64,000 bases of DNA from Escherichia coli 042 (GCF_000027125.1 NC_017626.1); one strand, 5' to 3'. Counted from the stretch's first letter, positions 57,380 to 64,000 are shown. Notes: a model not told the origin generated them from the sequence alone. Numbers and translations: made by a program.

Positions 57380-58228
57380 TTATGTGATCGCGCCCTGGTC
57401 GTCCCTGACAGTAAATCCCAGTTCATTAGAAATAGCCTGCGCGGTTTCACGCAGTGGTTTCAGGAGATTTTTCTCCCCCACCTGTTTCAGACGTGATGTC
57501 GAAAGAGAAATCGACACGGCGTACGGCACCCGCCCATGAATATCAAACACCGGAACAGCAATACAGGAGACGCCGAGTTCGTTTTCTTCTCTGTCCATCG
57601 CCGCTCCGCTTTCACGAATGTGCGCCAGTTCGTCGAACATCGCGGGGAGCTCGGTAATGGTATTGCGGGTTAACGGCTGGATCTCATGCTGATGGCTTTC
57701 CCAGTATGACTTCACGTAGTCCGGGTGACCAAACGCCATGTAGATCTTGCCCATTGCGGAACAGTAGAGCGGCATATGCTGGCCTATATAGGCACGGGTT
57801 CGCAGCATCCCGGTTGTGGGTTCCAGCTTATAAATCAAAATAGCGTGATCGTCTTCGCGGCTCGAGAAGTTAATGGTTTCACCAGTGGCGATGTTCAGTG
57901 CCTCAAGATGCGGAGCGGCGATATGAATGATATTCAGCGAAGACAGCGCCTTCTGCCCGACGGCAATAAATTTGGTAGTCAGGCGGTAACTCCCTGCGGC
58001 GGGCGCGGTGGTCACATAGCCGCAGGATTGTAATCCCTGCAATAAGCGATGGACGGTACTCTTATTTAAACCAGCCAGCTCCGAAAGATGCGCCAACGGA
58101 CAACCGTTTGGATAGTTGCTCAAAATCTCAATCAGCATCAACCCGCGAAACAGACTCTGGCTTCCGGCTGGACGCTCTTTTTCCTGCGCCATCTCGTTCT
58201 CTTTTTTTCCCATCACTTCTTTCCCCAT
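57380..58228 (-). CDS. yiaJ: IclR-family transcriptional repressor YiaJ, 282 aa
   Basis: ORF track; N-terminal HTH, divergent from yiaK. Confidence 0.85.
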   Translation of the reverse strand: MGKEVMGKKENEMAQEKERPAGSQSLFRGLMLIEILSNYPNGCPLAHLSELAGLNKSTVHRLLQGLQSCGYVTTAPAAGSYRLTTKFIAVGQKALSSLNIIHIAAPHLEALNIATGETINFSSREDDHAILIYKLEPTTGMLRTRAYIGQHMPLYCSAMGKIYMAFGHPDYVKSYWESHQHEIQPLTRNTITELPAMFDELAHIRESGAAMDREENELGVSCIAVPVFDIHGRVPYAVSISLSTSRLKQVGEKNLLKPLRETAQAISNELGFTVRDDQGAIT

Positions 58229-58430
58229 TTTGTCGCGTCCTGATGGTAGCGCAAAGTGTGTCGTAGTTCACGATCTCGACAGATAATTTATAACCACTTG
58301 ATTTTTAAGTTTTTTGAAATTCATCAATCAGATTGCTTTGTTAAAAAGCGATCGATATATTTGAAATCAGATTTCGCATATTGAAATTTTATGCCAAAAA
58401 AGCGATCAAAAAAAAACAAGGAAGCCAGGG

Positions 58431-59429
58431 ATGAAAGTGACATTTGAGCAGTTAAAAGCAGCCTTTAATCGAGTCTTAATTTCACGCGGCGTTGACAGCG
58501 AAACGGCTGATGCCTGTGCCGAGATGTTCGCCCGCACCACCGAATCCGGCGTTTATTCTCACGGCGTCAACCGTTTCCCTCGTTTCATTCAACAACTGGA
58601 AAACGGCGATATCATTCCCAATGCCCAACCCAAACGTATAACCAGCCTCGGCGCAATTGAACAGTGGGACGCCCAGCGTTCGATCGGTAACCTGACAGCG
58701 AAAAAGATGATGGATCGCGCCATTGAACTGGCTGCCGATCACGGTATTGGTCTGGTGGCACTACGTAATGCCAACCACTGGATGCGCGGCGGCAGCTACG
58801 GCTGGCAGGCGGCGGAAAAAGGCTATATTGGCATTTGCTGGACCAACTCCATCGCCGTAATGCCGCCGTGGGGCGCAAAAGAGTGTCGTATCGGCACCAA
58901 CCCGCTGATCGTCGCCATTCCTTCTACCCCAATCACCATGGTCGATATGTCGATGTCGATGTTCTCTTACGGCATGTTAGAAGTTAACCGTCTGGCAGGC
59001 CGTCAGCTCCCGGTCGATGGTGGCTTTGATGATGAGGGCAATTTGACCAAAGAACCTGGCGTTATCGAGAAGAATCGCCGCATTTTGCCGATGGGCTACT
59101 GGAAAGGTTCTGGCATGTCGATTGTGCTGGATATGATCGCCACTCTCCTTTCTGACGGCGCATCGGTTGCCGAAGTCACCCAGGACAACAGCGACGAATA
59201 CGGCATTTCACAAATTTTTATTGCCATTGAAGTAGATAAGCTTATCGACGGCCCCACCCGCGATGCCAAGCTGCAACGCATCATGGATTACGTTACTACC
59301 GCTGAACGCGCTGACGAAAACCAGGCCATCCGCTTACCCGGCCACGAATTTACTACCCTGCTGGCCGAAAACCGCCGTAACGGCATCACCGTTGATGACA
59401 GCGTGTGGGCCAAAATCCAGGCGTTATGA
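58431..59429 (+). CDS. yiaK: 2,3-diketo-L-gulonate reductase YiaK, 332 aa
   Basis: ORF track. Confidence 0.9.
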
Positions 59430-59440
59430 GGAGATAAGTC

Positions 59441-59908
59441 ATGATTTTTGGACATATCGCGCAGCCTGACCCGTGCCGTTTGCCTGCCGCCATTGAAAAG
59501 GCGCTCGATTTTCTGCGCGCTACCGATTTCAACGCCCTGGAGCCGGGTGTTGTCGAAATCGACGGCAAGAATATTTATGCGCAAATTATCGATTTAACGA
59601 CGCGCCCGGCAGAAGAAAATCGCCCGGAAGTGCATCGTCGCTATATTGATATTCAATATCTGGCGTGGGGCAAAGAGAAAATCGGCATTGCTATTGATAC
59701 AGGAAATAATAAATTCAGCGAATCACTATTAGAGCAGCGCGATATTATTTTTTATCACGATAGTGAACATGAATCATTTATAGAAATGGTACCGGGTAGT
59801 TACGCTATTTTCTTTCCGCAGGATGTTCATCGACCAGGTTGTATTCTGCAAACAGCCTCTGAGATACGAAAAATTGTGGTTAAAGTCGCATTAACAGCGC
59901 TGAATTAA
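59441..59908 (+). CDS. yiaL: YiaL (DUF386/YhcH-family), 155 aa
   Basis: ORF track. Confidence 0.85.
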
Positions 59909-61779: not shown

Positions 61780-61791
61780 AAGGAAAATATT

Positions 61792-62778
61792 ATGAAATTA
61801 CGCTCTGTAACCTACGCATTATTCATTGCTGGCCTGACTGCATTCAGCACATCTTCTCTGGCGGCACAATCTTTACGTTTCGGTTATGAAACATCACAAA
61901 CCGACTCGCAACATATTGCGGCGAAAAAATCCAATGAATTATTACAGGAAAAAACCAAAGGCGAACTGAAATTAAAATTGTTTCCGGATAGCACCCTCGG
62001 TAATGCGCAGGCGATGATCAGCGGCGTGCGTGGCGGCACTATTGATATGGAGATGTCTGGCTCTAACAACTTTACGGGGCTCTCGCCCGTCATCAACCTG
62101 CTCGACGTCCCTTTCCTGTTCCGCGATACCGCTCACGCGCATAAAACGCTCGACGGCAAAGTCGGTGATGATCTGAAAGCCTCACTTGAAGGTAAGGGAC
62201 TGAAAGTACTGGCCTACTGGGAAAACGGCTGGCGCGATGTCACCAACTCGCGCGCACCGGTTAAAACCCCCGCCGACCTGAAAGGGCTGAAAATTCGCAC
62301 CAACAATAGCCCGATGAATATCGCCGCATTCAAAGTCTTTGGCGCTAACCCGATCCCGATGCCGTTTGCCGAAGTCTATACCGGGCTGGAAACGCGCACT
62401 ATCGACGCTCAGGAACACCCGATCAACGTCGTCTGGTCAGCAAAATTTTTCGAAGTACAGAAGTACCTTTCTCTGACGCACCACGCCTATTCGCCACTTC
62501 TGGTGGTGATCAACAAAGCGAAGTTTGACGGCTTAACCCCGGAGTTCCAGCAGGCGCTGATCTCATCTGCGCAGGAAGCGGGTAACTACCAGCGCAAACT
62601 GGTTGCCGAAGATCAGCAAAAAATCATCGACGGCATGAAAGAAGCGGGCGTGGAAGTCATCACCGATCTCGACCGCAAAGCCTTTAGCGACGCACTGGGG
62701 AATCAGGTTCGCGACATGTTTGTTAAAGATGTGCCGCAGGGAGCTGATCTGCTGAAAGCCGTGGATGAGGTGCAATAA
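61792..62778 (+). CDS. yiaO: TRAP transporter periplasmic solute-binding protein YiaO, 328 aa
   Basis: ORF track; signal peptide. Confidence 0.9.
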   Translation: MKLRSVTYALFIAGLTAFSTSSLAAQSLRFGYETSQTDSQHIAAKKSNELLQEKTKGELKLKLFPDSTLGNAQAMISGVRGGTIDMEMSGSNNFTGLSPVINLLDVPFLFRDTAHAHKTLDGKVGDDLKASLEGKGLKVLAYWENGWRDVTNSRAPVKTPADLKGLKIRTNNSPMNIAAFKVFGANPIPMPFAEVYTGLETRTIDAQEHPINVVWSAKFFEVQKYLSLTHHAYSPLLVVINKAKFDGLTPEFQQALISSAQEAGNYQRKLVAEDQQKIIDGMKEAGVEVITDLDRKAFSDALGNQVRDMFVKDVPQGADLLKAVDEVQ

Positions 62779-62781
62779 ACC

Positions 62782-64000
62782 ATGACGCAATACTGGCTGG
62801 GGTTAGATTGTGGCGGTAGCTGGCTGAAAGCCGGGCTGTATGACCGCGAAGGCCGGGAGGCAGGCGTACAACGCCTGCCGCTGTGCGCATTAAGCCCGCA
62901 GCCAGGCTGGGCAGAGCGCGATATGGCAGAACTGTGGCAATGCTGCATGGCTGTCATTCGCCCCCTGCTTACTCATTCTGGTGTTAGCGGGGAACAAATA
63001 GTCGGTATCGGCATCTCCGCACAGGGAAAGGGCTTGTTTTTGCTGGATAAAAACGACAAGCCGCTCGGTAACGCCATTTTGTCCTCGGATCGCCGGGCGA
63101 TGGAAATCGTTCGTCGCTGGCAGGAAGATGGCATCCCGGAAAAACTCTACCCGCTGACGCGACAAACCTTGTGGACCGGGCATCCGGTGTCGCTGTTACG
63201 CTGGCTGAAAGAGCACGAACCGGAACGCTACGCGCAAATTGGCTGCGTGATGATGACGCACGACTACCTGCGCTGGTGTTTAACCGGCGTCAAAGGTTGC
63301 GAAGAGAGCAATATTTCTGAGTCCAATCTCTACAACATGAGTCTTGGGGAATATGACCCGTGCCTCACCGACTGGCTGGGGATCGCTGAAATCAACCACG
63401 CCCTGCCGCCTGTTGTCGGATCTGCCGAAATCTGCGGGGAGATCACCGCTCAGACAGCCGCACTGACCGGTCTGAAAGCGGGTACGCCCATTGTCGGCGG
63501 CCTGTTTGATGTGGTTTCCACCGCACTCTGTGCCGGGATCGAAGACGAATTTACCCTTAATGCGGTGATGGGCACCTGGGCGGTGACCAGCGGCATAACC
63601 CGTGGTTTACGTGACGGTGAAGCGCATCCGTATGTCTATGGTCGCTACGTTAACGATGGTCAATTTATCGTTCACGAAGCCAGCCCTACCTCTTCCGGCA
63701 ACCTCGAATGGTTTACCGCACAGTGGGGAGAAATCTCGTTTGATGAGATTAACCAGGCCGTTGCCAGCTTGCCGAAGGCCGGGGGCGATCTCTTTTTCCT
63801 GCCGTTCCTGTACGGCAGCAACGCCGGACTCGAGATGACTAGCGGTTTCTACGGGATGCAGGCCATTCACACCCGCGCACACCTGTTGCAGGCCATTTAT
63901 GAAGGCGTAGTGTTCAGCCATATGACCCATCTCAACCGGATGCGCGAACGTTTTACTGATGTGCACACCCTGCGCGTCACTGGCGGCCCGGCGCATTCCG
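62782..64000 (+). CDS. lyxK: L-xylulose kinase LyxK (SgbK/YiaP), N-terminal ~406 codons; continues past window end
   Basis: Hand translation from ATG ~62782: MTQYWLGLDCGGSWLKAGLYDREGREAGV...; FGGY kinase; not in ORF track because it runs off the edge. Confidence 0.8.
   Translation, partial: MTQYWLGLDCGGSWLKAGLYDREGREAGVQRLPLCALSPQPGWAERDMAELWQCCMAVIRPLLTHSGVSGEQIVGIGISAQGKGLFLLDKNDKPLGNAILSSDRRAMEIVRRWQEDGIPEKLYPLTRQTLWTGHPVSLLRWLKEHEPERYAQIGCVMMTHDYLRWCLTGVKGCEESNISESNLYNMSLGEYDPCLTDWLGIAEINHALPPVVGSAEICGEITAQTAALTGLKAGTPIVGGLFDVVSTALCAGIEDEFTLNAVMGTWAVTSGITRGLRDGEAHPYVYGRYVNDGQFIVHEASPTSSGNLEWFTAQWGEISFDEINQAVASLPKAGGDLFFLPFLYGSNAGLEMTSGFYGMQAIHTRAHLLQAIYEGVVFSHMTHLNRMRERFTDVHTLRVTGGPAHS

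Follow-up and report, generated by a model that had tools for sequence, protein, structure and literature searches.

The 64,000-nucleotide (nt) stretch of Escherichia coli 042 DNA analyzed here (GCF_000027125.1 NC_017626.1; referred to as the window) carries in its last part, from 57380 to 64000, the yiaJ (plaR) gene and the divergent yiaKLMNO-lyxK operon. A list of open reading frames (ORFs) for 56000-64000 placed yiaJ/plaR (57380-58228; 282 residues), which codes for an IclR-family transcriptional repressor, on the minus strand, with yiaK, yiaL, yiaM, yiaN, yiaO and a partial lyxK diverging from it on the plus strand across a spacer of 202 base pairs (bp). YiaK (58431-59429; 332 residues) is a 2,3-diketo-L-gulonate reductase (3-dehydro-L-gulonate 2-dehydrogenase), and YiaL (59441-59908; 155 residues) belongs to the DUF386, or YhcH-YjgK-YiaL, family. 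The next three genes code for the subunits of a tripartite ATP-independent periplasmic (TRAP) transporter: YiaM (60026-60499; 157 residues) is the small membrane subunit, of the DctQ type, YiaN (60502-61779; 425 residues) the large membrane subunit, of the DctM type, and YiaO (61792-62778; 328 residues) the periplasmic substrate-binding subunit, of the DctP type. Finally, lyxK (62782-64000) codes for an L-xylulose/3-keto-L-gulonate kinase of the FGGY family; 62782-63999 translates to 406 stop-free codons, and the remainder of the 498 lies past the end of the window. Position 57380, at which the first-pass annotation had set the start of the locus, coincides with the final base of the yiaJ stop codon. 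The ORFs that compete with the yia genes in other frames are short (fewer than 103 residues) and overlap them, and are therefore ordinary shadow ORFs.

The same set of genes was found in other E. coli genomes. With 57000-64000 as the query, megablast returned a match in 5,424 of 5,426 complete E. coli genomes, always on the chromosome, and at least 80% of the query was covered in 4,833 genomes. The annotated features beneath the matches were yiaJ, yiaK, yiaL, yiaM, yiaN, yiaO and lyxK. Moreover, the RefSeq tables of AF40, K-12 MG1655 (b3574-b3580) and BEC1-S17-ESBL-09 (BEC1 below) list identical genes in the same order and with the same spacing, and lyxK is the RefSeq name given to the last frame in every syntenic genome. 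In the annotated genomes the neighbors are xylR, bax, malS, avtA and ysaA upstream and, beyond the window, sgbH/ulaD, sgbU and sgbE/araD downstream. The first-pass annotation had described a divergent IclR-type repressor facing an operon for a dehydrogenase, YiaL, a three-part TRAP transporter and the start of L-xylulose kinase; names, order and offsets agree with the annotated yiaK-S operon in AF40, K-12 and BEC1, and only the word "start" was an understatement, as 82% of lyxK (406 of 498 codons) lies inside the window. We conclude, with a probability of about 0.97, that 57380-64000 is the E. coli yiaJ(plaR)/yiaKLMNO-lyxK-sgbHUE locus, with the K-12 type of gene order and intact throughout the part inside the window.

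That all frames are intact, as had also been stated, was borne out by codon-by-codon alignment: no complete gene differs in length from its K-12 counterpart, lyxK agrees with K-12 over the 406 codons present, and neither internal stops nor frameshifts occur. Relative to K-12 the proteins differ at 1 (YiaJ), 2 (YiaK), 11 (YiaL), 0 (YiaM), 3 (YiaN), 9 (YiaO) and 3 (LyxK, over 406 residues) positions. Because the codon changes across the seven genes are overwhelmingly synonymous (161, versus 29 non-synonymous), the comparison indicates that the yia genes are working genes under purifying selection. Alignment of 55000-64000 to three genomes revealed two insertion/deletion sites only, both non-coding. 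The first, of one base, is at 56796 in the gap between avtA and ysaA, outside the locus; the other, the sole such site within 57380-64000, is an A-run at 58406-58414 (plus strand), in untranslated DNA upstream of the yiaK ribosome-binding site (Shine-Dalgarno). The run counts 9 A in the window, 8 in AF40 and 7 in K-12 and BEC1. Taken as a whole, the K-12 MG1655 locus, plaR(yiaJ)-yiaKLMNO-lyxK-sgbHUE (b3574-b3583), shares with the window the order, orientation and lengths of the genes and the upstream flanks avtA and ysaA, with intergenic distances within 2 nt and protein identities of 93-100%. The two differ by a nucleotide divergence of 1.3-7.3% in the genes, highest in yiaL and in the 5' half of yiaO, by the two extra A before yiaK in the window, by the center of a putative operator described below, and in that the window stops inside lyxK.

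YiaJ contains an HTH_IclR domain (PF09339; residues 25-74, 54.2 bits against a cut-off of 22) and an IclR_C domain (PF01614; residues 92-268, profile positions 1-174 of 174, 223.6 bits), in keeping with its description as an IclR-type repressor encoded opposite to the operon. AF40 and BEC1 have an identical protein, which RefSeq calls "IclR family transcriptional regulator YiaJ" (WP_000514241.1); K-12 b3574 matches it at 281 of 282 residues, the sole difference being L278Q. None of the named IclR equivalogs of NCBIfam (KdgR, IclR, AllR and others) was reached at its cut-off, as is expected of YiaJ as a distinct orthologue group. KdgR, the IclR-family protein that governs a regulon in the Enterobacteriaceae, was the top-scoring named IclR-family model, at 159 bits, and the PlaR box resembles the KdgR box, some targets being common to both regulators (PMC6958661). 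However, the operon adjacent to yiaJ differs, and YiaJ is not KdgR, because 159 bits fall far short of the 275 that the KdgR equivalog requires.

YiaK, YiaL and LyxK were likewise placed in the expected families. YiaK matched Ldh_2 (PF02615) over its full length (profile positions 1-333 of 333), passed the NCBIfam equivalog NF009750, 3-dehydro-L-gulonate 2-dehydrogenase, with 670.7 bits (cut-off 316), and matched the solved structures 1NXU and 1S20, "oxidoreductase yiaK", in the PDB (E = 4e-224), in agreement with the dehydrogenase of the first-pass annotation. YiaL is a member of the DUF386 (YhcH/YjgK/YiaL) family, covering PF04074 from profile position 1 to 145 of 145 (156.2 bits) and scoring 212.7 bits with TIGR00022 (cut-off 45.5); the NanQ anomerase equivalog was not reached (132.9 bits versus a cut-off of 160). 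Its gene is the most variable of the set, with 7.3% nucleotide divergence from K-12 and substitutions at 11 of the 155 residues. The YiaL changes cluster at residues 56-59 (E56P, V58E, V59E), which suggests that this segment may be a variable surface loop. LyxK matched FGGY_N over profile positions 1-245 of 245 (320 bits) and FGGY_C over positions 1-159 of 198, where the end of the window cuts the match, and 403 of its 406 residues are identical to those of K-12.

TRAP transporters are uncommon in E. coli, and YiaMNO is, as far as is known, the only TRAP system of K-12. All three components were recognized by Pfam and NCBIfam. YiaM, which is identical to K-12 YiaM, scored 105.5 bits with DctQ (PF04290) and 329.6 bits with the YiaM equivalog NF007374 (cut-off 260); YiaN scored 462.4 bits with DctM (PF06808) and 917 bits with the YiaN equivalog NF011634 (cut-off 800); and YiaO scored 355.8 bits with DctP (PF03480; profile positions 1-285 of 286) and 364.8 bits with TIGR00787. 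Among solved TRAP binding proteins, YiaO matched 73 distinct sequences at E <= 1e-20. The yiaO gene starts 13 nt past the end of yiaN, and the N-terminus of its product, MKLRSVTYALFIAGLTAFSTSSLAAQ, reads as a Sec signal-peptide-like segment; substitutions in this segment are A16T relative to K-12 and L11F, V15L and A16T relative to BEC1 and AF40. No gene for an ATP-binding cassette (ABC) ATPase was found, by ORFs and Pfam, in the part of the operon within the window. The SiaPQM sialic-acid transporter of Haemophilus and Vibrio is likewise built of these three components, SiaP structures are among the matches of YiaO (E about 1e-43), and the DUF386 paralogue NanQ/YhcH lies beside sialic-acid genes as YiaL does beside yiaMNO. 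The substrate of SiaPQM is, however, another one, and in H. influenzae the membrane subunits are fused (SiaQM), whereas YiaM and YiaN are separate.

The control region between yiaJ and yiaK (58229-58430, 202 bp) showed 98% mean column identity in a four-genome alignment. In K-12, ChIP-exo (chromatin immunoprecipitation with exonuclease treatment) placed two YiaJ peaks within this spacer (PMC6237786), and binding of YiaJ/PlaR to it was found by genomic SELEX (gSELEX) and gel shift, with a palindromic PlaR box, ATnTGAAACnnnGTTCAnTT, overlapping the mapped yiaK promoter (PMC6958661). Where this published box is expected, the window has an imperfect palindrome, ATATTTGAAATC-A-GATTTCGCATAT, at 58357-58381, an inverted repeat with 12-nt arms that are 83% complementary; we regard it as a candidate YiaJ/PlaR operator. 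Its core, TGAAA-N5-TTTCR, occurs once in the 64-kilobase (kb) window, at 58362-58376 (here TGAAA-N5-TTTCG). Among four genomes the half-sites do not vary; the differences are confined to the center, which is CAGA in the window and CAAG in K-12. The region also holds a CRP-like site at 58257-58272 (plus strand), TGTGTCGTAGTTCACG, which agrees with the consensus at 8 of 10 positions. Cyclic AMP (cAMP)-CRP and IHF are both said to act at the yiaK promoter as well.

These parts can be combined with earlier work into a scheme for the operon. What this analysis established is the identity, integrity, family membership and synteny of the genes, together with an operator-like palindrome and its conservation; repression, effectors, the ligand of YiaO and the enzyme activities come from the literature and established knowledge. 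YiaJ/PlaR would bind a palindromic operator overlapping the yiaK promoter, for which 58357-58381 is the candidate, and so block transcription of the operon and probably also that of yiaJ itself. L-ascorbate or alpha-D-galacturonate would release the repressor and thereby derepress the operon; in vitro and reporter data show that either compound frees PlaR from DNA (PMC6958661), and deletion of yiaJ strongly up-regulates yiaK-S and allows faster growth on L-ascorbate (PMC6237786). In the periplasm, YiaO would capture 2,3-diketo-L-gulonate, an oxidation product of ascorbate, and hand it to YiaM/YiaN, which as a TRAP secondary transporter would be driven by an ion gradient, with no ATPase. YiaK would then use NADH to reduce 2,3-diketo-L-gulonate to 3-keto-L-gulonate, LyxK would phosphorylate the latter (and also L-xylulose), and SgbH, SgbU and SgbE, encoded beyond the window, would convert the product to D-xylulose-5-phosphate for the pentose phosphate pathway; these are the activities that the enzymes reportedly have. 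The scheme assigns no step to YiaL (DUF386).

The downstream chemistry is shared with the E. coli ulaG/ulaABCDEF (sga) system and its regulator UlaR. UlaD, UlaE and UlaF have paralogues in SgbH, SgbU and SgbE, and in some genomes the copies in the yia operon even carry the RefSeq names "ulaD" and "araD". The ula system differs in that uptake is by the phosphotransferase system (PTS) UlaABC, not by a TRAP transporter, and in that UlaR is of the DeoR type, not the IclR type; to our knowledge it has neither the YiaK reductase nor the LyxK kinase step. Both systems have been tied to the use of ascorbate (PMC6237786).

None of the evidence speaks against the identification of the locus, although there are some caveats. 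The 3' end of lyxK (its last 92 codons) and sgbHUE lie beyond position 64000, and the claim of integrity is limited to the window. The physiological substrate and effector are debated, the contenders being L-lyxose/L-xylulose, 2,3-diketo-L-gulonate or ascorbate, and galacturonate. As to the operator, at least one match to TGAAA-N5-TTTCR was found in 37 of 100 shuffles, and a single match in 64 kb is thus not significant alone. Moreover, the published PlaR consensus was unmatched in the spacer within 3 mismatches: its symmetric 21-mer, ATNTGAAACNNNGTTTCANTT, gave 0 matches, and the printed 20-mer gave 2, both outside the spacer and at chance level. The operator assignment therefore rests on the half-sites and the location. 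CRP-like sites of the quality seen at 58257-58272 number 25 in the window, versus 24.9 expected by chance, and because the count equals the chance expectation the match is not significant alone; position and prior knowledge of CRP dependence make it a weak lead. Lastly, a scan for the sigma-70 consensus gave no promoter in the yiaJ-yiaK spacer, which is compatible with a weak activator-dependent promoter and is not positive evidence for one; across 57200-60100 the scan gave 3 promoter-like and 5 terminator-like sites, not far from the 4.0 and 3.7 expected from shuffling.

On the other side of yiaJ, a hairpin followed by a U-run lies directly after the yiaJ stop codon (57296-57334, minus strand). 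Folding of the RNA from 57279-57385 (minus strand) gave a 12-bp outer stem, GCAGUAGAG...CUCUGCUG, and then UUUU, with -32.6 kcal/mol and z = -2.99. The hairpin is probably an intrinsic terminator that parts yiaJ from the co-directional ysaA (56805-57278), which codes for a 4Fe-4S ferredoxin-like protein. Between avtA and ysaA, at 56680-56762, are repeats like repetitive extragenic palindromic (REP) sequences, which matched the Rfam family ES036/CssrF with 38.9 bits, above the gathering score, and more weakly naRNA4/CssrE (31 bits, under the gathering score). In an Rfam scan of 56500-64000 at E <= 1, these REP-like small RNA family matches were the only ones, and no match fell inside 57380-64000.

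Across E. coli the locus occurs in three structural versions, namely the K-12 type, a divergent one with a DUF4862 gene, and one in which the operon is deleted. Some 1,050 genomes match the query at 90-95% identity; those sampled carry a divergent haplotype, in which an extra gene for a 306-residue DUF4862 protein stands between yiaL and yiaM and yiaM is about 70% identical at the nucleotide level. Strain SF-173 (NZ_CP012631.1) is an example, with the extra gene at 4427-5347 of the extracted locus, corresponding to about 59909-60025 of the window. In a further 590 or so genomes the match is confined to the first 521 nt of the query. One of these, ERL05-1306 (NZ_CP032803.1; 9381-10338 of the extracted locus), was inspected: yiaK-sgbE is deleted and yiaJ is a 141-nt pseudogene. 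The breakpoint corresponds to about 57520 of the window, and the yiaJ remnant adjoins a cluster of genes for an AraC-family regulator, an MFS transporter and a GH127 protein. This cluster is absent from K-12 and lies downstream of sgbE in many other strains.

One piece of the region, a minor one, is without explanation: the spacer between yiaL and yiaM (59909-60025, plus strand). At 117 nt, versus 2-12 nt for the other gaps of the operon, it is about ten times longer, and it contains a hairpin with a 14-bp stem at 59965-59999, for which the RNA fold gave -30.6 kcal/mol and z = -2.81. The spacer is nearly invariant in four E. coli genomes, with pairing kept at the two variant positions, and is far less variable than the coding sequence beside it, the hypervariable yiaL block. 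It is present in 3,869 genomes, with an identity of at least 99% in 1,881, and no annotated feature falls on it in any. An origin of the spacer as a scar of the DUF4862 gene was considered and is rejected, or at least unsupported, as blastn with a word size of 7 found no similarity to that gene or its flanks.

The length, folding and conservation of the spacer would all suit an additional, unannotated functional element, for example a regulatory RNA or a processing site. We nonetheless consider such an element unlikely. The spacer matched no Rfam family even at E <= 1, and it holds no consensus promoter or terminator; covariation was inspected in four sequences only, all from E. coli. In addition, hairpins between cistrons are common and often do no more than modulate mRNA stability, and the divergent haplotype has an unrelated spacer together with the DUF4862 gene, so that the operon does not depend on such an element. 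It is less likely still, at odds that we would call long, that the conserved hairpin is an undescribed cis-acting RNA element, acting as a processing or stability site or as a translational coupler. If true, the element would set the ratio of expression of the YiaK/L enzymes to the YiaMNO transporter.

The locus stands out from its surroundings in its relation to other genomes. The 21 kb upstream (36000-57000) are 100.0% identical to several E. coli genomes, whereas the best match for 57000-64000 is 98.6% and the haplotype is found whole in none of the 5,426 complete genomes. In a bin-by-bin comparison of the window with six genomes, the sequence was identical to BEC1 up to about 57750, inside yiaJ, and then closest to AF40/PER13 from 57750 to about 60250, to GN25 over 60250-62500, to BEC1 over 62250-62900, to Ecol_316 over 63000-63500 and again to GN25 over 63500-64000. 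There are thus at least five donor-like blocks, with the first breakpoint near 57750. Two blocks are strongly diverged between alleles, one in yiaL (59500-59750; about 22 differences per 250 nt) and one in the 5' half of yiaO (61750-62250; about 35 differences per 500 nt). The yiaO block is a minority allele, at least 95% identical in 79 genomes and 90-95% identical in 4,783. The 98.6% best identity had raised the suspicion of foreign or altered DNA, which we reject, since each block is matched at 99% or more elsewhere in E. coli and only 6 sites in the window are private relative to the six genomes. The operon is thus a mosaic of circulating E. coli alleles, the product of ordinary homologous recombination.

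Could such a patchwork be a decaying or functionally altered copy of the operon, in which the unusual yiaL and yiaO alleles or the longer A-run change or abolish function? The absence of the whole haplotype from complete genomes next to 21 kb of perfect identity, the five or more donor-like blocks, the divergence of the minority yiaO allele from the common one (about 7%), the 11 of 155 residues changed in YiaL, a run of 9 A where others have 7-8, and the loss of the operon from about 590 genomes, which makes it dispensable, could all be read in that way, but every block recurs at 99% identity or more in other E. coli with only the 6 private sites left over, the changes are mostly synonymous, stops and frameshifts are absent, the family profiles match over full length, some of the YiaO substitutions fall within the signal-peptide-like segment and the A-run is untranslated, so that we give this idea hardly any credence. 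The rare mosaic alleles of yiaL and yiaO may possibly alter ligand preference.

An intact yiaJ/yiaKLMNO-lyxK-sgbHUE locus of the K-12 type is ordinary, well studied and already explained, and holds nothing that would surprise a specialist. The first-pass annotation had rightly called its content established: binding of 2,3-diketo-L-gulonate by YiaO, the link of the operon to L-ascorbate catabolism and repression by YiaJ/PlaR are all covered by published work. The importance of the locus beyond annotation is accordingly small, this being a textbook operon with a solved YiaK structure, a characterized binding protein and two genome-wide studies of its regulator. It serves as a positional landmark on the chromosome, in the order xyl - bax - malS - avtA - ysaA - yiaJ - yiaK-S. 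The only point that is not in the textbooks is a population-genetic one: the mosaic of alleles offers a clean example of intraspecies recombination in E. coli.

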